DNA from: Azoarcus sp. KH32C
GTDB taxonomy: Bacteria > Pseudomonadota > Gammaproteobacteria > Burkholderiales > Rhodocyclaceae
Direction: 5' to 3'
Length of the DNA stretch: 64,000 bases
NCBI RefSeq assembly: GCF_000349945.1
Contig: NC_020516.1
Coordinates: 2,870,311 to 2,934,310 of the forward strand
Of the stretch, positions 11,108-36,922 are shown in pieces (position 1 is the stretch's first letter; the number at the start of each line of letters is the position of its first letter). The position numbers and the translations under genes are program-made. The notes under the pieces were generated by a model, which did no database searches, was not told the DNA's origin, and saw only the letters and a list, made by a program, of their open reading frames with translations.

Positions 11108-12181
11108 TCAGATGTCGAGCACGAGCTGCCCCGACTTGGCGCGCGAGACGCAGATCATGATCTTGTCACCGGCCTTGCGCTCCTTGGCGCTGAGGAATGC
11201 GTCGCGATGGTCGGGCGTGCCGGCGATGACGCCAGTCAGGCAGGTGCCGCAGACGCCCTCGCGGCACGAGGTGGCGACGTCGATGCCGTGCGCGCACAGC
11301 GCTTCGACGATGCTTCTGCCGGCAGCGACCGGGATCGTGCGCCCGGAGCGTTGCAGCTTGACTTCGAAGGCGTCGCTCGGCGCCGTCTTGGCGGCGGGGT
11401 CGGCGCTGAAGTATTCGAGGTGGATCGCGTCGGGCGGCCAGATGCCGGCCGTGACCTCGCCGATCAGATCCGTGAAGCGGCGCGGGCCGCACATATAGAG
11501 GTGGTGGCCCTGCGGGCATTTCCCGAGCAGCGGCTGCAGCAGCTCGCGCACCCGGTCGGCGGCGGGATGGTGGAAGTTCACTTTGTCGGCGTACGGCTCG
11601 GACGAGAGCACCTCATGGAACGCGGTCTCCGCGATCGAGCGCGTGAAGTAATGCAGCTCGTACGAGGCGCCGCGAGCCTGCAGCTCCTGTGCCATCGCCA
11701 GTAGCGGCGTGATCCCGATGCCGCCGGCGATCAGCACGTAATGGCGGGCTCCGTCGACGAGCTCGAAGTGGTTGCGCGGACCGCTGATGGCGAGCGTGTC
11801 GCCGACGCTCACGCGCTGGTGCATTGCGCGCGAGCCGCCGCGCGAGTCGGGCGCGTTCTTGACCGCGATGCGGTACGTGTCGCGCGCGCCCGGCGCGCCG
11901 CACAGCGAGTACTGGCGCACGGTCTCGTCGTCGATCCGCACGTCGATGTGCGCGCCGGCGCTCCAGGCGGGCAGCGTAGAGCCGTCGGCGCTCACGAGCT
12001 CGAACGACTTGATGTCGGCGGCCTCGTCGACGATGCGCCGCACGCGCACCGTCAGCGCCGCGACGGGAGTCTGCACCGGGCGGCGGCCGCGCAGCGACCT
12101 GCGGACCGCGGTCCAGGCGAGCACGATTAGCATGGGAATCGCGAGCGTGGCAATGAGCTGCAAAAGCAGGGAGGTATTCAT
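11108..12181 (-). CDS. PDR/VanB-family oxidoreductase (flavin reductase fold + NAD-binding + C-terminal 2Fe-2S ferredoxin) with N-terminal TM anchor
   Basis: Start chosen at MNTSLLLQLIATLAIPMLIVLAW with a GGAG RBS 6 nt upstream. FAD/FMN-binding RxYS motif (RQYSL). C-terminal CxxxxCxxC...C plant-type ferredoxin motif (CREGVCGTCLTGV...C). Confidence 0.75.
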   Translation of the reverse strand: MNTSLLLQLIATLAIPMLIVLAWTAVRRSLRGRRPVQTPVAALTVRVRRIVDEAADIKSFELVSADGSTLPAWSAGAHIDVRIDDETVRQYSLCGAPGARDTYRIAVKNAPDSRGGSRAMHQRVSVGDTLAISGPRNHFELVDGARHYVLIAGGIGITPLLAMAQELQARGASYELHYFTRSIAETAFHEVLSSEPYADKVNFHHPAADRVRELLQPLLGKCPQGHHLYMCGPRRFTDLIGEVTAGIWPPDAIHLEYFSADPAAKTAPSDAFEVKLQRSGRTIPVAAGRSIVEALCAHGIDVATSCREGVCGTCLTGVIAGTPDHRDAFLSAKERKAGDKIMICVSRAKSGQLVLDI

Positions 12182-12248: not shown

Positions 12249-12989
12249 TTACTCGGGCAGGTGGGGCAGCACGAACGACAGCGTCGCCAGGTGTTCGTCG
12301 TGGTTCGTCTTCGCAGGATTCGCAGGGGGCGTGGCGAGCGTTGCCGTGACGACGTTGAGGCCCTGGTTGCGCACCCTGATCGTCGCGATGCCGTCGGCGC
12401 CGGTTTTCAGCGGTTCGGAATCGGGGTCGGTGACGTAGTCGGGCTGCACGCTGGCGCCCTGCACGGGTTTGCCTTCATACAGCACCCGAACCGTGAGCGC
12501 CTGGCCCATCTTGTCCGGCAGTTCCTTCACGAGCGGCACGATCTGCAGCTTGTGGGCGGGCAGTACGGGCGTTGCCACGTCCAGCCGACGCAGGTGCACC
12601 GTGTACTTGACGGTGTGCTCGCTGATCGTCGCATCGGGCACCTCGTCCTTGCCCTTGTTGTGCCACTTGCCGTCGGGCGTCTTGCACCACGGGCCGTTGT
12701 CCAGGATTGCGGCGACGACGGCCGGCTTGTTGTCGGTGTTCACCACGAGCAGCGGGCCGCTGGGCGCCAACTGCGTCGGCACCTCCTTGCCGTCTTGGTC
12801 GTAAGCCGCGACGGTCTTCACCTTGGGCAGACGCTTCACCGCGTCCAGATCGTCAGCGCCGACTCCGTAGATCAGCGCGAGCTGGTTGGAACGCTGCGCG
12901 AACCAGATGCCATGGGCCTGCGCCACGGTCGTGGTGCCGAAGCCCGCAATCACGCTCGCCACGAGCGCAAGTTTGCCGAAAGTCTTCAT
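12249..12989 (-). CDS. DUF4198 domain-containing periplasmic protein
   Basis: 246 aa with signal peptide MKTFGKLALVASVIAGFGTTTVAQA. Family resembles DUF4198/NikM-like proteins usually found with PepSY and outer-membrane proteins. Confidence 0.6.
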   Translation of the reverse strand: MKTFGKLALVASVIAGFGTTTVAQAHGIWFAQRSNQLALIYGVGADDLDAVKRLPKVKTVAAYDQDGKEVPTQLAPSGPLLVVNTDNKPAVVAAILDNGPWCKTPDGKWHNKGKDEVPDATISEHTVKYTVHLRRLDVATPVLPAHKLQIVPLVKELPDKMGQALTVRVLYEGKPVQGASVQPDYVTDPDSEPLKTGADGIATIRVRNQGLNVVTATLATPPANPAKTNHDEHLATLSFVLPHLPE

Positions 12990-13025
12990 TTTTATCTCCT
13001 ATCCTCTATTGGGGGAACATCACAT

Positions 13026-14111
13026 TTAGAAGTTGTGCCTGATGCCGAAGTCGAATCCGTTGGAGGACTTGCCCGGAGCCGTCACGGCGCCGTTCAGGGC
13101 CGAGGCAGACGCGCCTTCATTGGTCACGTGAGCGGCGGCCGTATACAGGGCAGTGCGCTTCGACAACGGATAGACATAACCAAGCGCCCACTTCTTGGCC
13201 GCCGGGCTGCCTGCCGCATCAGTGCCGTAACGCGAGTACGCAACGCGGATGGCTCCGACGCCGGCGGGGATCCGCGCGCCCACCAGCCAGCCCCTGGCGT
13301 TGACCGGACCCTTCTCGTCCCATTCGTACATGCCCATGACCTGGACCACACCGAAGTCATAACTCGCGCCTGCGTTGTTCTGCCGGACGTTGCCCACTGC
13401 GTAGAAGGTCCTGCCGACTGCGCCCGACATCGTCAAATTGCCGGTCGAGTAGATGGCGCGGAGGCCATAGCCGTTGCCGTCCTTGGAGGTTTCGGTACCA
13501 CTGGGGTTTTCGCCCATGTAGTACATGGCGTGGAACTGGAAGCCGGAGCCGCTGAATCCGCCGGGTCCGTATCCGACCGCGGCGGCGTTGAAGCCATGGC
13601 CGTAGAGGTACGAGATGCTGTTGGAGGCGCGGACCAGGGTCGGGCCGGTGATCGCGGAATTCAACACCTGGCTGCCTCCGCTGCCGCTGAGGTCGAATGG
13701 ATCGAAGTCGGCCATGTTCAAGTACTGCGGCACGAAGTCGCGGCCGAGGCGAATCTCACCCCAGTCGCCTCCCACGCTGATGTGCGAACGGCGGTTGAAC
13801 GTGAAGCCCCCACCGCCCACAACACCGGTGGGCTGGTTGTTGGTGTTGGTGGATTGGCCAGTGCCGGTGTCGGCGTTGAAGCCGCTTTCAAGCCAGAATC
13901 CGGCCTTGAGGCCGCTGCCAATATCCTCTGTGCCTTTGAAGGCGATCCTGGAAGCGGCAAGGTAGCCGTTGGCCAGTTGGCTCTCGTTCGAAATGCTGCC
14001 AGTACCACGTGCGACGGCGAGGTCTACGGCACCGAACACGGAGACGTTGGATTGAGCGAAAGCGGTGCCGGCGAGCGAGGCCGCGAGGACCGCGGGTACG
14101 AGTGTTTTCAT
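13026..14111 (-). CDS. outer-membrane porin (Gram-negative porin, betaproteobacterial OmpC-like)
   Basis: Internal start MKTLVPAVLAASLAGTAFAQS (signal peptide). Gly/Asn-rich beta-strand pattern and C-terminal ...GIRHNF with terminal Phe. Confidence 0.85.
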   Translation of the reverse strand: MKTLVPAVLAASLAGTAFAQSNVSVFGAVDLAVARGTGSISNESQLANGYLAASRIAFKGTEDIGSGLKAGFWLESGFNADTGTGQSTNTNNQPTGVVGGGGFTFNRRSHISVGGDWGEIRLGRDFVPQYLNMADFDPFDLSGSGGSQVLNSAITGPTLVRASNSISYLYGHGFNAAAVGYGPGGFSGSGFQFHAMYYMGENPSGTETSKDGNGYGLRAIYSTGNLTMSGAVGRTFYAVGNVRQNNAGASYDFGVVQVMGMYEWDEKGPVNARGWLVGARIPAGVGAIRVAYSRYGTDAAGSPAAKKWALGYVYPLSKRTALYTAAAHVTNEGASASALNGAVTAPGKSSNGFDFGIRHNF

Positions 14112-15202
14112 TGCGCTTGAATTCCCTTGCATTCGACGTGTTTCCGAGAGGCAGTCTGCGTTTTCGCTTTCATCCGGAAGCGTTGCACCGCACCCGTCAA
14201 GGCCAGCCCGGCGAGCGCCAGCGCGAACAGGGTCCACAACACGCGCGCCACGAGCGCGCCCGCCAGGCCCGGGGTGCCGGGCAGCGTGCCAAGGTGCAGC
14301 GGGTAGACGACGTTGAGATAGCGCACGCTCAGCGGCTGCTCGGCGGCGCGCACGACGCGTAGCACCGAGGCGTCGGATGCGCTCACGAACACGTTGTTGA
14401 GACCGATGGGATGCCACTCGTCGCCGCGCATCCGGATGCGCACCTGACCGTTGCGGGGCGGGTAGATGCGAATGGGGCGCGCCTGCGGCAGCGCTGACAC
14501 AGCGGCGACGAGGGCCTGGCCCAGGGTTGCCGTCTGCGGCCCGCTCGCAGCTGGTGCCGCCACGCCGGGTGCAGCGGCCGTCTGACCCGGCCAGGCCGAC
14601 ATCGCTGCACTCGCCCATTCCGGTGAGCGCAGCACGAAGCCGGTCACCAGCATCATCGCCACCGGCAACACGAAGACCGGGCCGATCACGCGATGCACGC
14701 GCCGCCACGGCGTGGCCGGCGGCAGGTGACGCATGCGCAACCAGACCCGCAGCCCCATCGCAACCAGCACCAAGGCGATCAGCGCGATCGCACGCAGCAC
14801 CCAGGGGCCGACGTCAGCAAGCAGCAAGCGTTCGTGCAGGCCGTACAGCAGCGTTCTCGCCTGGCTGCTGTCCGGCCGCAATTCGCCTGCCGTGCCATGC
14901 ACGACATCGATGTCGGCCCAGCCACTTTCGTTGGAACTCGAGGCGAGCAGGCGCACGCTCACAGGCGCCTGCGCGTCAGGCGGCAAGTTCACGTACTCGA
15001 TTTTCGCCGCCGGATATTGGCGCGCCAGTGCGGCCAGGCCCTGGTCCACTGCCGAGGCCCAAGCCTGCACCGCAGGGGGACTCTCCTGCTGCGCCGGCAG
15101 CGGCTGCATCCACAACAGGACCGCGCCACCCAGGGCCTGAATCGCGAGCAGCGGAGCGAGGATCCAACCGAGGCGGCCATGCCATTGGTAAGAGAACTTC
15201 AT
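14108..15202 (-). CDS. PepSY-associated TM helix domain protein
   Basis: 364 aa. N-terminal MKFSYQWHGRLGWILAPLLAIQALGG motif typical of the PepSY_TM family. 4-nt overlap with the porin start. Confidence 0.8.
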   Translation of the reverse strand: MKFSYQWHGRLGWILAPLLAIQALGGAVLLWMQPLPAQQESPPAVQAWASAVDQGLAALARQYPAAKIEYVNLPPDAQAPVSVRLLASSSNESGWADIDVVHGTAGELRPDSSQARTLLYGLHERLLLADVGPWVLRAIALIALVLVAMGLRVWLRMRHLPPATPWRRVHRVIGPVFVLPVAMMLVTGFVLRSPEWASAAMSAWPGQTAAAPGVAAPAASGPQTATLGQALVAAVSALPQARPIRIYPPRNGQVRIRMRGDEWHPIGLNNVFVSASDASVLRVVRAAEQPLSVRYLNVVYPLHLGTLPGTPGLAGALVARVLWTLFALALAGLALTGAVQRFRMKAKTQTASRKHVECKGIQAQ

Positions 15203-27127: not shown

Positions 27128-28183
27128 TCAGGCGGCGCCCGCGGACAATGCGTCGATGCGCCTTCGGAGCGTCGCGCACTCGTCGACGAATCGAGAGCGC
27201 ACATGCGCGAAATAATCTTCCCAGTCGTCGACGCTTCTCGCCTGACGATAGACGGTGTCGAGTTGGAGGGTCTGGATAGCAAGGATCAGGTCGGCAACCT
27301 GGTCCTGCAGGTCGCGGACGCGACTGCGCGCCGAGTGGTCGGTCGATGCGCTTGTGCTCGCCGTGGTGTCCTGGCGCGCGATGGAATCGGTTTCGAGTTC
27401 GCCCAGGAGACGCTGAAGTGCCGCCAGGTCGCTCCTGCGATAGGCTTCCTGGACGCTGAGAAAGGACTCGTGCGCCGCGTCCTTGTCGGTGTCGCCCACC
27501 CGGTCCGGATGGCAGCGCATGACGGCCGCGCGGTAGAGACGGCGCAGCTCGTCTTGTTCCTCTTCGTCCAGTTGCGCGGATGCCTGCCGTGAGGACTCCT
27601 CGACGGTCTTGTGAAAGGCGTCGCGTTCCTTCGCGGCCGCGCCCGCCTCTTCGCGGTCGGAAGCCGCGCCCGTTTGTTCGGCTCTCAGCCGGTAGTATTC
27701 GGCGCGCAGCATCAAGCATTCCTCGATCACCGTGCCCAAGGCCACGTACTGGGACTGCTGGAACTGGCACACCAGCCGCTGCATCTCCGCGAGCCGCACT
27801 GTGAGATCCCGCATCTGCCCTTGCAACATGACCGCACGGGCGATCAGCTTGTCCAGGTCCGCATCGGGCATATGCGCGACGGCGGCTTCGGCGGTGGCGG
27901 GTTCGGGGACTTCCTCGTCCTCGATTTCAGCGGATTCCGCGGGCAGGACTTCGAGCTCGGGCAGAAGCTCTTCCGACTTCGACGCTGGCTGCTGTTCCGG
28001 CTCGGCGGCAGGTCCAGGCTCTGCGACCTGCGGTTCGGGTTCGACGAGAGGCGGTGGAAGCTCGACAACGGCGGCTGCGGCCGTGGTCTCGTCTCGCTTG
28101 ATCTCAGGAGTCCGGCGCTCACCCTGGCCGAAGAAGGCGAGCATCGCGCCGCGGACGCGGTGAACGAAGGTCGATAGATTCAT
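27128..28183 (-). CDS. J-domain (DnaJ-like) protein with acidic Pro/Glu-rich N-terminal region
   Basis: 351 aa. C-terminal J-domain with HPD motif (LYRAAVMRCHPDRVGD...). N-terminal ~110 aa are low-complexity E/P/A-rich. Confidence 0.55.
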   Translation of the reverse strand: MNLSTFVHRVRGAMLAFFGQGERRTPEIKRDETTAAAAVVELPPPLVEPEPQVAEPGPAAEPEQQPASKSEELLPELEVLPAESAEIEDEEVPEPATAEAAVAHMPDADLDKLIARAVMLQGQMRDLTVRLAEMQRLVCQFQQSQYVALGTVIEECLMLRAEYYRLRAEQTGAASDREEAGAAAKERDAFHKTVEESSRQASAQLDEEEQDELRRLYRAAVMRCHPDRVGDTDKDAAHESFLSVQEAYRRSDLAALQRLLGELETDSIARQDTTASTSASTDHSARSRVRDLQDQVADLILAIQTLQLDTVYRQARSVDDWEDYFAHVRSRFVDECATLRRRIDALSAGAA

Positions 28184-28361
28184 GCCCGAATCGCGTCACC
28201 GTTTCGATGCCGCGCCCCCGAAAAGTGTCGACCTTAGCATTCTGACGGAATATCGGCCGCCAAGAGCGTCGATTCCGGTAAGGAAATGTCATCGGGGGAG
28301 GCCGTGGCGGGCCTGCGGAGGGCGACGCGTCGCACGGGATTGCGACGCGTCGTCGAAAGGC

Positions 28362-28958
28362 TTAGCTCGCGAGCCGGCGATCGGGGAAGTCGATCACCCG
28401 CGCCTGGTGCCGACGTTCCTGGAAGAACTGCTGCAGGCCGGTCTTGCCACGTGCCGGCGAGAAGCCGGTGAGCATCTGCATCTTGGTCTGCGCGGCGGTC
28501 ATGATGTCGAACCATGCGCGGAGCAAGACTTCCATGCGTGCGGCGCTTTCCGGGCTCAGCTGCGGCATCGTCTCGCTGTCCATGGCCTGACGGCGCGAGA
28601 TGTTGTCGATTGCGAGGTTCGCGGTCTCGTTCTGGATCTGGAGCAGCCGTTCCCGCAGCGACAGCAGCAGCGTGTTCATGACCATGATCGTCCGCATGCT
28701 CATGTTGCCGGCCGCTTCGCTGGCGTGTAGCGAGTCCGACCCTTCGGGCAACGGCGGGACGATCATCGACGCGCTCTCGCGCAGCCCGAGCGTCTCTTCG
28801 ATGCTTGCGATGGCGGCCTGCCAAGCTGTCGTTGCGCTGAGTTGTTGTTCCCAGGCCAAGCCGATGGTTTCCCTGCTCATTTCATCAAGGTTGAAAGGCG
28901 GGATGAATTCGTATTCCAGGGCATCGGTGTGGATGGTGTTCAGGTTCGTTGTCCTCAT
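28362..28958 (-). CDS. hypothetical protein
   Basis: Start chosen at MRTTNLNTIHTD, preceded by a GAGGAG RBS 8 nt upstream. ~198 aa with no recognised domain. Co-directional between rtcR and the J-domain gene. Confidence 0.4.
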   Translation of the reverse strand: MRTTNLNTIHTDALEYEFIPPFNLDEMSRETIGLAWEQQLSATTAWQAAIASIEETLGLRESASMIVPPLPEGSDSLHASEAAGNMSMRTIMVMNTLLLSLRERLLQIQNETANLAIDNISRRQAMDSETMPQLSPESAARMEVLLRAWFDIMTAAQTKMQMLTGFSPARGKTGLQQFFQERRHQARVIDFPDRRLAS

Positions 28959-29171
28959 GTTGCCGTCTCCTCGGTCTAGGTTTAACTCCGGATTGATGCC
29001 GCCGGTTGGAGCGAGTGGCTCCGTCCAGTACATCCGGAACGATGCAAATGTGCGACCGCCTCCGAACCCAAAGGAATCCCCAAGGCGGAAATCATTCCAG
29101 GTCAAACGATAGTCTGAAGTGTCCTCCCGACCTGTTACAAAATGATCACAGCCGTAACGGATCATCGCGTA

Positions 29172-30770
<1,599 letters not shown>

Positions 30771-30908
30771 GGTTTTATCTTTTCGGATAAGTAACTCGAT
30801 ACAAGTCTATATTCCGCGCCCTGGTCTCGCTCGCCAGGATTTCACACGAAGGGAAACAGTGCCGTCGTATCAACGGCTTCGCGATTCGTTCGACGATCGC
30901 CATGCCGC

Positions 30909-30924
30909 TGGCACGCCTCTCGCA
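30909..30924 (+). promoter_or_regulatory. sigma-54 (-24/-12) promoter: TGGCACG-N4-TCGCA
   Basis: TGGCACGCCTCTCGCA matches the TGGCACG-N4-TTGCW consensus with GG and GC correctly spaced. It is oriented towards the slipin-rtcB genes and opposite the EBP gene rtcR. Confidence 0.65.
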
Positions 30925-31052
30925 ATAGGTGAAGCGATCGCCGACGCGCTGCAATGGCCCACGGGCCGGGGCTGAAGACCCCGCCGGTGCGCGGGAGCCG
31001 GAGTCCGCTCTGTCGTTCCTGCGTATGCCGCCGCCGTGTGGATGCGATCGCC

Positions 31053-31171
31053 GTGCGGTCCCCTGGAGGGGGCAACCGGGTTCGATTCCCGGGCCGCACT
31101 CGATTGGATAGCTCAGTCGGTAGAGCAGCTGCGATAGCAGCCTGTCGCGGGTTCGACTCCCGCTCCAAACC
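31053..31171 (+). ncRNA. tandem tRNA-like structured RNA in the rtc operon leader (Y-RNA/YrlA-like candidate, not a decoding tRNA)
   Basis: Module 1 (31053-31099): 7-bp acceptor-like stem GTGCGGT/GCCGCAC, a small hairpin and a T-arm CCGGG-TTCGATT-CCCGG. Module 2 (31102-31171): acceptor stem GATTGGA/TCCAAAC (6/7 bp), canonical D-arm GCTC-AGTCGGTA-GAGC and T-arm GCGGG-TTCGACT-CCCGC. Its anticodon arm is a 5-bp stem with a GATA tetraloop, so no anticodon loop and no CCA. Lies between the sigma-54 promoter and the slipin gene. Confidence 0.5.
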
Positions 31172-31430
31172 TGTCCTGACACGACAGTTGATGCAGCAGT
31201 ACCCGCCGGTTGCGGTGTGCGCGAGCACCCGCCGCCGGTCCGCCCGGCCCCCGGCCCGCCCTCGCGGCAGGGCGTTCGGCAAGGCGGCAGATGGGTTCCG
31301 CCGCTCCCCGGTGCCTCGGCGCCGTGGAGTACCGGACCGCCGGCCCCCTGCCCTGCGCCTCCCCGCCCGTGTCGGCCGGTTGGCCCGACGGACCGGCGCC
31401 CGACCGGCAACAACAAAAAGGAGAACGAAA

Positions 31431-32570
31431 ATGTTGAAGCGATTCGTGGTGAAGAAAGACGAGCGTGGCGCACTGCTCCGGGAGGCGGACTTCGAGCGCA
31501 TCCTGAAATCCGGGCGCTACCGGTTTTTTGATCCGTTCGGCCGGCTCTCGCTCGTCACGTGGAAGGCGGACGCTCCGATGACCGATCTCGGGATCGTCGA
31601 CTACCTGCTTCAACATGAACCGGCGGTCGCCGCCGAGCATTTCGAACGGATGGAGCTGACCGAAGACCAGGCCGGCCTGCGTTACGAGAACGACGTGCTA
31701 GTCGAAATCCTGCCGCCGGCAGCCCGCCGCTTCGTGTGGAAGGGCGTGGTACGGCATCGACTGGAGACGGTCGACCTGCGCGCCGGCTACGCCGTGGCGC
31801 CGGAGGTCGCCGCGCACCTGGTCCAGCCGGCCTTGCGCGGACGCGCCGTGATGGGGCTCGGTTATCTGCTGCTTGCGCAGGTGCCGGCCTATCACGTCGG
31901 CGTGCTGAAGGTGGACGGAAAGGTGCAACGGCTGATGCCGGCGGGAGTCGAAGGGTTCTGGCGTTTCAACCGGGACATCCAGGTCGAACTGGTCGATACG
32001 CGGCTGCAGAACATGGAGGTCAGCGGCCAGGAGATCCTGTCGCGCGACAAGGTCGGGCTGCGGCTCAACCTCGCGGCGACCTGGCGTTACACCGACGTGC
32101 TGCTGGCGTACGAGAAGCTGAGCAAGCCGGCCGATCACCTGTACCGTGAACTGCAGTTCGGTTTGCGGGCCGCCGTCGGGACGCGGGCCATCGACGAGCT
32201 GCTGGAGAACAAGCAGACGATCGACGAGGTCGTGGGCGACTATGTGGCCCGCAAGCTCGACGGTTTCGGGATCGAGGTGAGCAGCGTCGGGGTGAAGGAC
32301 ATCGTGCTGCCGGGGGAGATGAAGAACATCCTCGCGCAGGTCGTGGAGGCCGAAAAGTCGGCCGAGGCGAACGTGATCCGGCGCCGCGAGGAAACGGCCG
32401 CGACGCGCTCGCTGCTCAACACCGCGAAGGTGATGGAAGACAACCCGACGGCGCTGCGCCTGAAGGAGCTCGAGACGCTGGAAAGGGTCGCCGAGCGGAT
32501 CGACCGGATCTCGGTGTTCGGAGGCCTCGACCAGGTGCTGAGCGGGCTCGTGAGTATCAAGAATGCGTGA
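31431..32570 (+). CDS. slipin / SPFH (band-7, stomatin-like) domain protein
   Basis: 379 aa with strong RBS AAAAAGGAGAA. C-terminal ~250 aa show SPFH-domain hallmarks (…KVGLRLNLAATWRY…IDELLENKQTIDE…EAEKSAEANVIRRREE…). Start of rtcB overlaps its 3' end. Confidence 0.75.
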   Translation: MLKRFVVKKDERGALLREADFERILKSGRYRFFDPFGRLSLVTWKADAPMTDLGIVDYLLQHEPAVAAEHFERMELTEDQAGLRYENDVLVEILPPAARRFVWKGVVRHRLETVDLRAGYAVAPEVAAHLVQPALRGRAVMGLGYLLLAQVPAYHVGVLKVDGKVQRLMPAGVEGFWRFNRDIQVELVDTRLQNMEVSGQEILSRDKVGLRLNLAATWRYTDVLLAYEKLSKPADHLYRELQFGLRAAVGTRAIDELLENKQTIDEVVGDYVARKLDGFGIEVSSVGVKDIVLPGEMKNILAQVVEAEKSAEANVIRRREETAATRSLLNTAKVMEDNPTALRLKELETLERVAERIDRISVFGGLDQVLSGLVSIKNA

Positions 32571-33795
32571 GAGAAAAATGGATTTCCAGTTGCTGGAAGT
32601 GGAAAACGGCAAGCCGATCAAGATGTGGACATCGGGCGTGCCGGTCGAGGACGAGGCGCGCCGGCAGTTGATGGCGACGGCCTCGATGCCCTTCATATAC
32701 AGGCACATCGCGGTGATGCCGGACGTGCATCTGGGCAAGGGATCGACGATCGGCAGCGTGATCCCGACCCGCGGTGCGATCATTCCCGCGGCGGTCGGCG
32801 TCGATATCGGCTGCGGGATGATCGCCGCCCGCACGACGCTGACGGCGAAAGATCTGCCGGACAACCTGCACCGCCTGCGGACCGCGATCGAACACGCGGT
32901 GCCGCACGGGCGCACCACCCCGCGCGCGGGCCGTGACGTCGGCGCCTGGGAGAGGACGCCGGCCGAGGTCGATGCGGCCTGGCGCGCGCTGCTGCCGGGC
33001 TTCAACCGCATCACGGAAAAGTATCCGAAGCTGAAGAACACGAACAACTACAAGCACCTCGGGACGCTCGGGACCGGCAACCATTTCATCGAGGTGTGCA
33101 TCGACGAGGAGGACCGCGTCTGGTTCATGCTGCATTCGGGGTCACGCGGCGTCGGCAATGCGATCGGCAACCTGTTCATCGAACTGGCGCAGGTGGACAT
33201 GCGCGAGCACCTCGCGAATCTGCCCGACCGCGATCTCGCGTACTTCAAGGAAGGCAGCAAGCATTTCGACGACTACGTCGAGGCGGTCGGCTGGGCGCAG
33301 GACTATGCGCGGCGCAATCGCGCGGTGATGATGCATCACGTCGTGGAGGCGGCCCGGTCGGTGATCGGGAAGGCTTTCGCGGCGGACGTCGAAGCCGTGA
33401 ACTGCCACCACAACTACGTCCAGCGCGAAACACATTTCGGCGCGGATATCTTCGTCACGCGCAAGGGAGCCGTTTCGGCGCGCAAGGGTGAGCTCGGCAT
33501 CATCCCGGGATCGATGGGCGCAAAAAGCTACATCGTCCGCGGACTCGGCAACGAGGAAGCGTTCTGCTCCTGCAGCCACGGTGCGGGACGGGTGATGAGC
33601 CGCAACGAGGCGAAGCGACGGTTCACGGTCGAGGATCAGGTCAGGGCGACGGCCCACGTCGAATGCCGCAAGGATCGCGACGTGATCGACGAGATCCCGA
33701 TGGCCTACAAGGACATCGACCGTGTGATGGAGGCGCAGCGCGAACTGGTCGAAGTCGTGCATACGCTGCGCCAGGTGGTGTGCGTGAAGGGCTGA
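32563..33795 (+). CDS. rtcB: RNA-splicing ligase RtcB
   Basis: 410 aa. Conserved RtcB motifs (DVHLGKGSTIGSV, GCGM, metal-binding His/Cys, NHNYV, GSMGAKSYIV, HGAGR). Confidence 0.9.
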   Translation: MRERKMDFQLLEVENGKPIKMWTSGVPVEDEARRQLMATASMPFIYRHIAVMPDVHLGKGSTIGSVIPTRGAIIPAAVGVDIGCGMIAARTTLTAKDLPDNLHRLRTAIEHAVPHGRTTPRAGRDVGAWERTPAEVDAAWRALLPGFNRITEKYPKLKNTNNYKHLGTLGTGNHFIEVCIDEEDRVWFMLHSGSRGVGNAIGNLFIELAQVDMREHLANLPDRDLAYFKEGSKHFDDYVEAVGWAQDYARRNRAVMMHHVVEAARSVIGKAFAADVEAVNCHHNYVQRETHFGADIFVTRKGAVSARKGELGIIPGSMGAKSYIVRGLGNEEAFCSCSHGAGRVMSRNEAKRRFTVEDQVRATAHVECRKDRDVIDEIPMAYKDIDRVMEAQRELVEVVHTLRQVVCVKG

Positions 33796-33907
33796 GGGCG
33801 CACGCATCGAAGCGTCTTGCCGTCACATTTCATTGTCACAAATCGGCAACTGAAATGTAACAGCACGGGACTAGGCTGCCGGGTTCCACTTTTCACCCGG
33901 TCGCCCG

Positions 33908-35980
33908 ATGCGTGCGTTGCGTTCATCCCTCCTCGGCAAATACCGCCTGCTGGTGCTGGCTGTTGCGGCGTTCTTCGCGCTCAGCGTCAGCGTGTACTCG
34001 CTCAACTTCCTGATGCTTCGCCAAGTCGACCTCGACGCGACGAGGATCAACGACGGCGGGAAGTTGCGCGGGTACTCGCAGCAGCTGGCGAAGGCGATCC
34101 TTACGCTCTCCCACGAGTCGTCGCAGGGCGAGCCGATCCAGACCAGCCAGGCGCAGATTTCGGAAGCCGTCCTGGCCTTCGATCAGTCGCTCACGGAAAT
34201 TCGCAGTTTGGCGAGCGAGGACCACGACCCGACCGAGCAGCAACTGTTGGACGAGATCGATAAGCAATGGACGCCGCTGCGCGATGCGGCGAACGCGCTG
34301 ATCGGCGAGCGACCATTCAGCGAAACGGACGTGCAGGCCACCTTCACGCTCAGCGACACGCGGAACGTGCGTCTGTTGCAGCTCGCGGGCGACCTGACCC
34401 AGCACCAGGAGGCCCTTGCAGCCGAGCGGGCGCAGTCGATGCGTTACCTGCAGTTCGGCGCGATCGGGCTCGCGCTGCTCAATTTCCTCTACATCGTCGT
34501 CCACGTCTTCCGCAGTCTGCGCCGCAGCGACCGCGAGGCCGAGCAGGCGCGCCGCGAAACCGACGACATCCTGCGCACGGTGCGCGAGGGGCTCTTCCTG
34601 ATGCATCGGGACGGCACGGTCGGGACGCAGCGCTCGGCGCATCTCGCGAAGGTGTTTCCGCAGCCGCTGGCGCCCGGACACAACTTCCTGACGATGCTCG
34701 CGACGCTGGTCTCCGACGAAACGATGCAGTCGGTCCGGCAGTACGTGGAGCTGCTGTTCAACGAACGGGTGAAACCGGCCTTGCTGGCGGACCTTAATCC
34801 GCTGAATCGCGTCGAGATCGCGCCACAGGGACGCGGCCGGACGATGCACCTGAACTTCGGCTTCCATCCGGTGCGCGGCGAAGGCGGCACGGGGATCGAC
34901 GCCCTCCTCGTCGCGGCCGTCGACGTCAGCCAGGAGGTGCGGCTGGAGCAGGAGCTGGCGGGCGCCGAGGAGCGCGCGCGCAACGAGGTTTCGCTGCTGC
35001 TTGGCGTGCTGGAGAACGAGCCGGCGGAGGTGATGCGCTTCCTCGCCGAGGCGAAAGCAAGGCTAGAACGGGCGAACGGCGTGCTGCGGGACGTGCCGGT
35101 CGAAGTCGGCGCCTATCTCGCGGCCGTCACGCGAGTGTTCCGGGAAGTTCACACGATCAAGGGCGAGGCTGCGGCGCTGTCGATGGGCACCGTCGCCGCC
35201 CAGGCGCACGAGTTCGAGGACGTCCTCACGGCGCTCGTCAAGCGGCGGAATCTCGGCGGCGACGACCTGATCCCGGTCGCGACCGGCATTGGCCATCTGA
35301 TGCAAGAGCTGGCGAAAGTCGATGCCGTGGTCGGGCGGATCGGCGCCTTCACGCGTGTCGCCCCGGGACGGGACACTTCCGCCGCCGACGTGGCAGGCAA
35401 GGACGCAAGCGCCGACGACTGCGTCTACCAGTCGATGCAGCGCATCCAGCGCTTCGCCCTGTCGGTTGCGGCCGAGCTCAACAAGAAGCTGCGCGTCGAG
35501 ACCTCCCTGCCCCACGTCGAGGATGTGCCGGCGTCCGTGCACCGCGTGCTGCGCGAGGGACTGCCGCAGCTCGTTCGCAATGCGGTCGTGCACGGCATCG
35601 AAAGTGCCGACGAGCGCCGCCTTGCGGGCAAGCAGGAGGAAGGCCGGTTGCGCATCGAGTTTCAGCGCACTGCCGATGGCGGACTCGAACTGACGGTCGC
35701 CGACGACGGCCGCGGGATCGATGTCGCGGCCTTGCGGCGGCATCTCGTCGACGCCGGCTATCGCGATGCCGACGCAGTCCAGGCGATGAGCGATCGCGAG
35801 GTCGTCGCGACGCTCTTCGAGCCGGGCGTGTCGACTGCGGCGAGCGTCACCGAGCATGCGGGCCGCGGCGTTGGCCTGGATGCGATCAGCGCGCTCGCAC
35901 GCGAGACCGGCGCGCGGCTGAAGCTCGCCTCCACCCCGCGCACCTACACGCGCTTCACCCTTCAATGGAGCCCGACATGA
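33908..35980 (+). CDS. membrane-anchored CheA-like sensor kinase (periplasmic sensor, Hpt domain, CheA-type HATPase; no CheW-like P5 domain)
   Basis: 690 aa. Two TM segments (aa ~14-36 and ~196-217) flank a ~160 aa periplasmic region. Hpt motif FREVHTIKGEAA. CheA N-box LVRNAVVHGIE and G-boxes (DDGRGID, GRGVGLD). Protein ends right after the ATPase domain. Confidence 0.7.
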   Translation: MRALRSSLLGKYRLLVLAVAAFFALSVSVYSLNFLMLRQVDLDATRINDGGKLRGYSQQLAKAILTLSHESSQGEPIQTSQAQISEAVLAFDQSLTEIRSLASEDHDPTEQQLLDEIDKQWTPLRDAANALIGERPFSETDVQATFTLSDTRNVRLLQLAGDLTQHQEALAAERAQSMRYLQFGAIGLALLNFLYIVVHVFRSLRRSDREAEQARRETDDILRTVREGLFLMHRDGTVGTQRSAHLAKVFPQPLAPGHNFLTMLATLVSDETMQSVRQYVELLFNERVKPALLADLNPLNRVEIAPQGRGRTMHLNFGFHPVRGEGGTGIDALLVAAVDVSQEVRLEQELAGAEERARNEVSLLLGVLENEPAEVMRFLAEAKARLERANGVLRDVPVEVGAYLAAVTRVFREVHTIKGEAAALSMGTVAAQAHEFEDVLTALVKRRNLGGDDLIPVATGIGHLMQELAKVDAVVGRIGAFTRVAPGRDTSAADVAGKDASADDCVYQSMQRIQRFALSVAAELNKKLRVETSLPHVEDVPASVHRVLREGLPQLVRNAVVHGIESADERRLAGKQEEGRLRIEFQRTADGGLELTVADDGRGIDVAALRRHLVDAGYRDADAVQAMSDREVVATLFEPGVSTAASVTEHAGRGVGLDAISALARETGARLKLASTPRTYTRFTLQWSPT

Positions 35981-36348
35981 AAGCGAGACTGCTGATCGTC
36001 GATGATTCGATGGTGATCCGGAACCTGATCGCCCGCCAGATGCTCGACGAGCGCCTGCCGCCGATGGACGTTGTCGGGCTGGCGGCCGACGGCGAGCAGG
36101 CGCTGGCGATCGCGCTGTCGAAGCACCCCGACTTCATCACGATGGATCTGACGATGCCCAACATGGACGGCGAGGCCTGCATCGAACGCCTCGCGGCGGT
36201 GCTGCCGAGCGCCAGGATCATGGTGGTGTCCGCCCTCAGCGACAAGACGACGGCGCTGCGCGCCATCAGCAAAGGCGCCCACGGCTTTCTGCACAAACCC
36301 TTTACCGACGAACAACTGGTCGCCGCCCTGCTGGAGTTGATGAGTTGA
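35965..36348 (+). CDS. CheY-like response regulator (receiver domain only)
   Basis: LLIVDDS, phospho-acceptor D in FITMDLTMPNMDG and a conserved Lys. Start may instead be the ATG at 35977 (MKARLL), which overlaps the upstream stop. Confidence 0.85.
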   Translation: MEPDMKARLLIVDDSMVIRNLIARQMLDERLPPMDVVGLAADGEQALAIALSKHPDFITMDLTMPNMDGEACIERLAAVLPSARIMVVSALSDKTTALRAISKGAHGFLHKPFTDEQLVAALLELMS

Positions 36349-36818
36349 ACTACCGCGCGCTGAATCACGAAGACATCGAAGTGTTCTCCGAGGCGATCTC
36401 CGCCTTCTTCCTCAACATGACCCACGAGCCGGCCATGGTGCGCACGGCCTACATGCTGGAGGGGAGCACTCCGCCGCTCTGGGGCGATTTCAACGGGGTG
36501 ATCGAGGTCTCAGGCGGCTTTCGCGGCAGCATTACCTTCTCGGCCCCGGGGGGGATGCTCGGGCAGGTGCTCGACGTCATGGGAGAAAGGGAGCAGTCGG
36601 CCGACCGCTGCCTGGACGTGGTCGGCGAGATCGCCAACATGATGTCAGGGCGGGCGCGTCGCCATTTCGGCGAGGATCTGACGATCGCGCCGCCGAAAGC
36701 CTGCCTTCGCTCTGCGCGGCACACGCTGCCCGGTGCGAGCGGGACCCCGTACGCAATTCCGTTGCGCTGGCGGACCTTCGAGGCCAACCTGGTCGTGCAC
36801 CTGGACATCCGCCGATAG
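36345..36818 (+). CDS. CheX-like chemotaxis phosphatase
   Basis: 157 aa. CheX/CheC-family motif (DVVGEIANMMSGRA). Start overlaps the upstream stop. Confidence 0.65.
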   Translation: MNYRALNHEDIEVFSEAISAFFLNMTHEPAMVRTAYMLEGSTPPLWGDFNGVIEVSGGFRGSITFSAPGGMLGQVLDVMGEREQSADRCLDVVGEIANMMSGRARRHFGEDLTIAPPKACLRSARHTLPGASGTPYAIPLRWRTFEANLVVHLDIRR

Positions 36819-36922
36819 GCGGACGTGACATCCGCTTACCCTGCGTTTCTTGATTTACCGCTCCGCGTCGCCCAGATTCCTTGGGTGCGAACCTTTGCAG
36901 GGTGAGCGAAGGAGTGTGGGGC

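Follow-up and report, generated by a model that had tools for sequence, protein, structure and literature searches.

The closest described relatives of the locus considered here are RNA-repair operons built around the ligase RtcB and controlled by the sigma-54 activator RtcR. The rtcBA promoter of Escherichia coli is described as an upstream activating sequence (UAS), a site for integration host factor (IHF) and a sigma-54 site (PMC9650030), and the same source reports that RtcA and RtcB bind RtcR at its CARF domain. In Salmonella the ligand of RtcR is a tRNA 5' half ending in a 2',3'-cyclic phosphate. RtcA helps to make such cyclic-phosphate tRNA halves, which bind the CARF domain, and is reported to be needed for full induction (PMC7790460). 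A module of RtcB, a Band-7 protein and a b7a-tRNA was described by Burroughs & Aravind in 2016, as summarised in bioRxiv 10.1101/312249. The Pseudomonas aeruginosa operon is PA4582-rtcB-PA4584-rtcA with rtcR divergent; PA4582 is the SPFH protein PaFlo8, embedded in the rtc locus, and PA4584 is RlaP. Expression of PA4582 is induced 3.2-fold by H2O2 (PMC1250226). Here we analyse a 64-kb stretch of DNA from Azoarcus sp. KH32C (the window, to which coordinates refer unless stated otherwise), in which rtcR diverges from a slipin gene that is followed by rtcB.

We consider this region an ordinary but reduced RtcR-controlled SPFH (Band-7)/tRNA-like RNA/RtcB RNA-repair module, a reading to which we give a probability of about 0.8. 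The initial annotation had presented the locus as an uncharacterised variant of the RNA-repair response. That view cannot be maintained, as the architecture has already been described by comparative genomics: it is found in the module of Burroughs & Aravind 2016, as summarised in the preprint cited above, and in the PA4582/PaFlo8 locus of P. aeruginosa. The KH32C copy is a reduced member of this group rather than an undescribed variant.

The J-domain protein, the 198-residue hypothetical protein (hyp198) and the slipin encoded in the window are each 100% identical to NCBI proteins of KH32C. Gene identities were taken from the listing of open reading frames (ORFs) and from Pfam and NCBIfam scans, which bear out both the gene list and the coordinates given earlier for the J-domain, hypothetical, rtcR, tRNA-like, SPFH, rtcB and kinase features. 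The control region and the core module comprise the following elements.

29172-30770, minus strand: rtcR, 532 amino acids, with CARF, AAA+ sigma-54 activator and helix-turn-helix (HTH) domains
30775-30790: palindrome TTATC-N6-GATAA, candidate UAS; the rtcR start codon is 5 nt away and the -24 element lies about 118 bp downstream
30820-30838: inverted repeat CCTGG-N9-CCAGG, present but not conserved
30868-30880: IHF-like site TATCAACGGCTTC, with the sigma-54 promoter 40 nt downstream
30908-30924, plus strand: sigma-54 promoter CTGGCACGCCTCTCGCA, with GG at 30910-11 and GC at 30922-23
30961-31267, plus strand: structured leader or non-coding RNA, conserved and covarying
31102-31171, plus strand: tRNA-like element, 46.1 bits with the Rfam tRNA model
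31431-32570, plus strand: SPFH/Band-7 slipin gene, 379 amino acids, Pfam Band_7 94 bits
32578-33795, plus strand: rtcB, 405 amino acids (longest ORF from 32563), full-length Pfam RtcB match of 441 bits

RtcR passes the NCBIfam equivalog RNA_repair_RtcR (NF038308) with 844.6 bits against a cut-off of 650, matches the Pfam models RtcR and Sigma54_activat with 288 and 166 bits, and scores 879 bits with the RtcR model of PADLOC. This was the sole PADLOC match, and the slipin, hyp198 and the J-domain protein received no defence-system assignment from that tool. All genes from the promoter to rtcB are accounted for by Pfam, and none of them encodes a TROVE (Rsr) protein. Scans for terminators and sigma-70 promoters between 27000 and 34100 gave nothing beyond the expectation from shuffled sequence and do not inform on operon boundaries.

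Conservation of the core module and its control region

Scanning genomes with the slipin as query gave at least 530 relatives, from which 80 loci were kept, one per species, spanning Rhodocyclales, Thiobacillus, Gallionellaceae, Pseudomonas and others. A divergent rtcR precedes the slipin gene in 70 of the 80, the RtcR orthologues being 67-82% identical, and in about 71 the slipin gene is followed by rtcB, with a product 71-86% identical to KH32C RtcB. In 61 loci ARAGORN places a tRNA-like element 260-350 nt ahead of the slipin start, with 'anticodons' that are variable or unassignable. Slipin and rtcB are thus genuinely paired, together with a tRNA-like RNA and a divergent RtcR/sigma-54 promoter, and the arrangement is strongly conserved. 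The association of rtcR with its neighbours, proposed in the initial annotation, splits at this point. Slipin-rtcB recurs as stated, while a J-domain gene occurs in only one of the 80 loci and hyp198 in none. By the refuting condition given in the initial annotation, the slipin part is not a chance adjacency, whereas the J-domain/hypothetical part is.

Some loci in the collection deviate from the usual arrangement. In four of them (L057, L070, L073 and L083) the RtcB encoded after the slipin gene is only about 30% identical to the usual one and no rtcA lies behind it; a different RtcB paralogue has therefore been swapped in. Six others (L025, L051-L053, L055 and L077) have a slipin gene with no match to RtcR or RtcB in the available flanks, although some of these contigs are short and may be truncated. 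ARAGORN finds an upstream tRNA-like element in four of the six (L051, L052, L053 and L077).

For the control region, 70 rtcR-slipin intergenic regions were compared, that of the window among them. The strict sigma-54 pattern CTGGCACG-N5-TCGCW is found at the same position in 59, including the window, where the promoter reads CTGGCACG-N5-TCGCA. Transcription is expected to start near 30935. Farther upstream, the strict palindrome TTATC-N6-GATAA occurs in 24 of the 70 regions compared to 0.04 expected after shuffling, and with up to two substitutions it is present in 61. We infer that the strongest UAS candidate for RtcR is this palindrome, which adjoins the start codon of rtcR. The IHF-like site fits the consensus WATCAANNNNTTR at all but the last base. 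Of 59 relatives, 23 have the consensus within 80 nt of the promoter, 22 of them at a distance of 39-42 nt upstream, and the TCA-N5-TT core of the site is at least 80% conserved in the alignment. In E. coli, GATATC/TATC half-sites, an IHF-like site and the sigma-54 sequence CTGGCACGACGGTTGCA follow each other in matching order, with the half-sites at the same place as the palindrome.

A different UAS had been proposed earlier, namely the inverted repeat CCTGG-N9-CCAGG. The repeat exists where it was reported, at the position listed above, but the window is alone in carrying it among the 70 intergenic regions, and the alignment is variable at this place. Nor are perfect inverted repeats of 5 bp significantly enriched: the 140-nt stretch contains four against 1.5 expected, a number reached by 10% of shuffles. 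The repeat was rejected as a UAS on these grounds. The palindrome TTATC-N6-GATAA and the IHF-like site are better candidates for RtcR binding and DNA bending, respectively.

In 59 loci the leader is conserved over its full length, about 30937-31275. RNAalifold applied to 28 betaproteobacterial sequences, with one helix added by eye, yields a structure of 74 pairs in 14 helices. Of the cells in this structure 96.1% are paired, a share that falls to 35-46% on sliding the partners. Changes on both sides are seen in 36 pairs against 12-19, and the covariation score is 0.324 against at most 0.09. None of 500 shuffles reached the observed values. A structured RNA of about 310 nt, conserved and covarying, takes up the leader from the sigma-54 promoter to the slipin gene and goes well beyond the 70-nt tRNA-like element. 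Its parts are as follows.

30961-30988 and 30989-31024, plus strand: 5' hairpins
31054-31098, plus strand: mini tRNA-like module with an acceptor-like stem, a hairpin and a T-arm (31076-31092)
31102-31171, plus strand: full tRNA-like module with a 4-nt 'anticodon' loop, the element matched by the Rfam tRNA model
31171-31187, plus strand: hairpin
31205-31267, plus strand: 3' domain

ARAGORN assigns no anticodon to the tRNA-like element at 31102-31171. In Rfam the leader is matched by the tRNA model only, apart from a YrlA match that is partial and, at 21.8 bits, below the gathering score of 69; no Rfam family covers the leader beyond the tRNA model.

The slipin consists of a beta-rich N-terminal extension (about residues 1-115), the SPFH domain and a coiled-coil tail. 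The N-terminal domain is charged, folded and beta-rich, is conserved in all homologues and replaces the membrane hairpin of stomatin; it gave no Pfam match at E <= 10. Resemblance to stomatin is limited to residues 187-378. This composition bears on an alternative in which the slipin tethers RtcB together with the tRNA-like RNA to the inner membrane, in the manner of stomatin and HflK/C scaffolds, giving the membrane-associated variant suggested in the initial annotation. The SPFH and coiled-coil region does have membrane proteins among its homologues, namely stomatin, HflK and QmcA, and the family is annotated as 'slipin' or 'HflC-like'. Yet no transmembrane segment is predicted. The highest mean Kyte-Doolittle value over 19 residues is 1.34, compared to 2.36 for the true membrane kinase encoded nearby, a heuristic comparison, and peripheral membrane binding may still occur. 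No NfeD partner gene is present either. The sequence thus gives no indication of a membrane-associated variant, and in view of the missing hydrophobic segment and the domain that takes the place of the hairpin we regard membrane anchoring as unlikely.

The slipin gene and rtcB had also been described as translationally overlapping. The codon aligned to position 32578 (MDFQLL) is ATG in 34 relatives, and 18 of these have no upstream in-frame start. Because of this conservation the overlap was rejected, and RtcB most likely starts at 32578. The slipin stop codon occupies 32568-32570, 7 nt before the start preferred here, so that the two genes would not overlap.

We put forward tentatively, as a possibility rather than an expectation, that the leader is a large stand-alone RNA, composed of the two tRNA-like modules and six or more additional covarying hairpins, that is released from the transcript and joins a soluble SPFH protein, itself forming a ring or cage, in a particle like that of Ro and Y RNA or like a vault, serving RtcB, and that the KH32C locus is a natural minimal version of this system. 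If so, RNA, slipin, RtcB and RtcR would make up the natural minimum, and RtcA and RlaP would be dispensable for the core function and for RtcR signalling.

Absence of rtcA from the window and a probable mechanism

The earlier statement that no rtcA follows rtcB was confirmed and can be extended. A tblastn search with two RtcA proteins gave no match at E <= 1e-4 in the 64-kb window, and RlaP, the HEAT-repeat protein and the zinc-finger protein (zf_Tbcl) known from relatives were likewise not found there by tblastn. A tblastn search of PLSDB with RtcA matched no Azoarcus plasmid, with the inclusion of the KH32C plasmid in PLSDB being unconfirmed. In other species the gene is common at this place: rtcA lies downstream in 50 of the approximately 71 loci with slipin followed by rtcB, and the closest relatives (L010-L014) are among these. 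Of the other loci whose downstream sequence spans at least 1.5 kb, about 14 likewise have no rtcA, and eight of these keep RlaP. Since the closest relatives and 50 loci in total retain rtcA while the KH32C window does not, its loss appears to be secondary, and it would be recurrent rather than unique to KH32C.

The operons of relatives contain further genes. In two examples inspected with Pfam, a treble-clef zinc-finger protein is encoded between slipin and rtcB, and a HEAT-repeat protein, RlaP and RtcA are encoded past rtcB. In L014 the extra genes are, in the coordinates of that locus, a zinc-finger gene at 11171-11617 (PF13451), a HEAT-repeat gene at 12898-14310 (470 amino acids) and an RlaP nucleotidyltransferase gene at 14333-15145. 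Such genes occur in many other loci, in combinations that differ from locus to locus.

A metagenome-assembled genome (MAG) of Aromatoleum sp. (L001, DATFAO010000017.1) shows how far the reduction can go. It is otherwise collinear with the window, 87-90% identical and also without rtcA, and it carries a clean 3-kb deletion corresponding to window 29529-32533. Gone with it are the promoter and the RNA, three-quarters of rtcR at its 5' end and nearly all of the slipin gene, so that rtcB is stranded without a promoter. At the junction (L001 8422-8432) about 11 nt align both to window 29519-29529 and to 32533-32543, which suggests microhomology. The lineage of KH32C and Aromatoleum thus seems to be trimming the locus.

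In view of the above, the most likely mechanism is the following. The CARF domain of RtcR would sense damaged RNA, possibly with a ligand of the kind known from Salmonella. RtcR would then oligomerise on the upstream site beside its own start codon, for which TTATC-N6-GATAA is the candidate, and, with IHF-assisted bending of the DNA, would open the sigma-54 promoter. The resulting transcript would comprise the structured RNA of about 310 nt with its two tRNA-like modules, the slipin gene and, 7 nt further on, rtcB. The slipin would be soluble, probably assembling into a ring or cage as other SPFH proteins do, and together with the tRNA-like RNA could serve as a scaffold or cofactor. Distal operon genes would have been lost in the KH32C/Aromatoleum lineage, not only rtcA but also the RlaP, HEAT-repeat and zinc-finger genes of relatives. 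Because of this loss, both activation and repair would have to rely on cyclic-phosphate ends that nucleases produce directly.

A less favourable interpretation of the same losses is that rtcR, slipin and rtcB form a decaying remnant which, after the distal genes disappeared, retains little function and is heading for inactivation. It would be consistent with the disappearance of rtcA, RlaP and other distal genes that the closest relatives keep, with the large deletion in the 87%-identical Aromatoleum MAG that made rtcB promoterless, and with the contribution of RtcA to induction in Salmonella (PMC7790460). The state of the KH32C copy argues against it. The genes for RtcR, slipin and RtcB are all full length and their products give full-length domain matches, and the promoter, the palindrome, the IHF-like site and every helix of the RNA are intact. 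Moreover, rtcB has a ratio of non-synonymous to synonymous substitution rates (dN/dS) of 0.05 relative to the Aromatoleum orthologue. Operons with slipin and rtcB but no RtcA gene occur in the roughly 14 other species mentioned above, and from established RtcB biochemistry the ligase uses cyclic-phosphate ends directly. Decay of the module is therefore quite unlikely, and we retain the interpretation as a reduced RNA-repair module.

Adjoining genes

The genes on either side of the module are listed below.

27128-28183, minus strand: J-domain-like gene, 351 amino acids, partial Pfam DnaJ match with HPD motif; the NCBI call has 338 amino acids and starts at 28144
28362-28958, minus strand: hyp198 gene, 198-residue hypothetical protein, start supported by all homologues
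33800-36823, plus strand: cassette of a PilJ-Hpt-HATPase kinase, CheY and CheX, from Pfam

In the J-domain protein, the Pfam DnaJ match reaches 26.5 bits against a gathering score of 27.8 and covers positions 13-51 of the 63 of the hidden Markov model. An ORF with an HPD-containing, J-domain-like part is thus present as annotated, but the domain is not C-terminal as had been claimed: it lies at about residues 197-261 of 351, with some 90 residues behind it. About 30 homologues were found, most of them with a precomputed PF00226 match. Eight were looked up, one of which had no gene on record. A neighbourhood like that in the window was seen only in the Aromatoleum MAG. The other homologues looked up lie near TetR/RND efflux and phage-like genes, near AhpC, phasin and DsbA genes, near histone-deacetylase-like and HNH genes, or near a cyclase gene, and none has rtc genes nearby. 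The single slipin locus with a J-domain homologue, L048 from a Rhodocyclaceae MAG, has this gene 3 kb downstream of rtcR; its product scores 29.2 bits with Pfam DnaJ, above the threshold.

The start of hyp198 used here excludes a longer hypothetical ORF of 267 amino acids, which was rejected since the methionine of the 198-residue form is the start in all homologues. Hyp198 is rare: it has five homologues among 5.8e9 proteins, and an exhaustive profile search retrieved 73 clusters among 1.84e9 representatives. Homologues were looked up in three different contexts, with neither rtc nor J-domain genes near them. Neither hyp198 nor the flanks of the J-domain protein gave a Pfam match at E <= 10, and a sequence search of the PDB gave no match for hyp198 and only marginal J-domain matches for the J-domain protein (E 0.03-0.06). 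An AlphaFold model of hyp198 from five sequences is all-helical with a mean predicted local distance difference test score of 46.9 and was unusable for a fold search. Family relationships were more informative. Pfam Phasin_2 matches were obtained for seven of the 54 aligned members, the best at an E-value of 7e-13, and protein P0204, retrieved by the family profile at 4.3e-6, has a Phasin_2 match at 1.5e-7. Direct profile comparison with one phasin was weak (17% probability). The helical C-terminal half of hyp198 is probably phasin-like.

In one other lineage a J-domain protein homologue adjoins a convergent Phasin_2 gene, between AhpC-like and DsbA-like genes (L003-L005, L007-L009 and L098). 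Since a phasin-like hyp198 adjoins the J-domain gene here as well, this hints at an association of the J-domain protein with phasins or phasin-like proteins that would be independent of RNA repair, but two lineages are too few to claim it.

The kinase block at 33800-36823 is an exact three-gene indel of 3,024 bp relative to the Aromatoleum MAG, and no flanking repeats were found around it. A 15-nt inverted repeat (33818-33832/33851-33865) lies in its upstream non-coding part. CheA-like homologues are found in none of the 80 slipin loci.

The initial annotation linked the J-domain protein, and with it proteostasis, to rtcR. In the corresponding scenario the J-domain protein and hyp198 are lineage-specific rtc accessories, co-expressed with rtcR, that tie RNA repair to DnaK-dependent proteostasis. 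Both genes are co-directional with rtcR in the window, the pair stands beside rtcB in the Aromatoleum MAG too, L048 has its J-domain gene in the vicinity of rtcR, and both genes are under purifying selection (dN/dS of 0.14 for hyp198). Nevertheless, this scenario is very unlikely: the intergenic gaps measure 213 bp between rtcR and hyp198 and 178 bp between hyp198 and the J-domain gene, the J-domain gene of L048 is parted from rtcR by a nitronate monooxygenase gene and an opposite-strand Ada-like gene, the J-domain gene is missing from 79 and hyp198 from all 80 slipin loci, no family downstream of rtcR is common to more than 8 of 64 loci, and no rtc genes accompany the homologues of the J-domain protein in five other types of context or those of hyp198 in three. 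The Aromatoleum MAG in fact argues in the opposite direction, because it keeps the pair despite the deletion of rtcR and slipin, so that the pair would be independent of them. What connects rtcR, hyp198 and the J-domain gene is a co-directional adjacency, not a demonstrated operon. Together with the CheA/CheY/CheX cassette, hyp198 and the J-domain gene appear to be unrelated neighbours placed there by chance, and the claimed links of either protein to the rtc genes have not survived the comparison.

Some points weigh against the interpretation as a reduced RNA-repair module. The SPFH/tRNA-like part of the system has been described from computation, and the KH32C locus itself is known from its sequence alone. 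In the Aromatoleum MAG both hyp198 and the J-domain gene still adjoin rtcB, which leaves a small probability of lineage-specific co-option. Finally, induction might be poor at a locus that has no rtcA, unless the genome contains one elsewhere, because RtcA is reported to be needed for full induction in Salmonella (PMC7790460) and RtcA and RtcB are reported to bind the CARF domain in E. coli (PMC9650030).

The original finding matters little: its architecture was known already, also from a model pathogen, and the features that made the locus look special, i.e. the J-domain gene, the hypothetical gene, the kinase module and the first candidate UAS, are not conserved. Of more value is that KH32C appears to offer a naturally minimal SPFH/tRNA-like RNA/RtcB system of four parts without RtcA or RlaP. 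Such a locus would be a clean genetic background for studying the roles of the slipin and the RNA, and RtcR activation without RtcA. The comparison further yields regulatory sites that can be tested, namely the conserved palindrome, the IHF-like site and the sigma-54 promoter, as well as a leader RNA structure supported by covariation.

Comparison with known systems

With the E. coli rtcBA and Salmonella rsr-yrlBA-rtcBA operons the KH32C locus shares the CARF-AAA+-HTH architecture of RtcR, the RtcB ligase and a divergent layout with a UAS, an IHF site and a sigma-54 promoter. In gene content they differ: the enterobacterial operons have rtcA and no SPFH gene, whereas the KH32C window has the SPFH gene and no rtcA. 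The pair of scaffold and RNA also differs, being Rsr (Ro60) with Y RNAs in Salmonella and, on the reading preferred here, the slipin with the tRNA-like RNA in KH32C. Unlike the Ro60 (Rsr)/Y RNA-RtcB module, KH32C has no TROVE gene at the locus, and its match to YrlA is partial and below threshold.

Compared to the membrane-anchored stomatin and slipin scaffolds, an N-terminal transmembrane or hairpin anchor was not found in the KH32C slipin. Among the neighbours, the J-domain protein resembles stand-alone bacterial J-domain proteins in its HPD-containing core, with a match that is partial and just under the Pfam threshold. Hyp198 resembles Phasin_2 proteins through the family profile of its helical C-terminal half, while the protein itself has no Pfam match.

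The rtc locus of P. aeruginosa is much closer. Divergent rtcR, sigma-54 promoter, slipin gene and rtcB follow in the same order, and the Pseudomonas slipins and RtcB proteins are about 65% and 75-81% identical to those of KH32C, respectively. Pseudomonas keeps RlaP and/or rtcA, neither of which is found in the KH32C window. Its loci carry two full tandem tRNA-like elements as detected by ARAGORN, whereas in KH32C only an acceptor-like stem, a hairpin and the T-arm remain of the upstream module.

The arrangement as a whole is that of the Band-7/b7a-tRNA/RtcB module of Burroughs & Aravind 2016, as summarised in bioRxiv 10.1101/312249, with the SPFH gene directly upstream of rtcB and a tRNA-like RNA upstream of the SPFH gene. 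This arrangement is spread over distant proteobacteria. The KH32C copy differs from the Band-7 modules of its relatives in having no rtcA, RlaP, HEAT-repeat or zinc-finger genes. Compared to a single tRNA-like molecule, the RNA of KH32C and its relatives is larger, about 310 nt with two tRNA-like modules and flanking hairpins.

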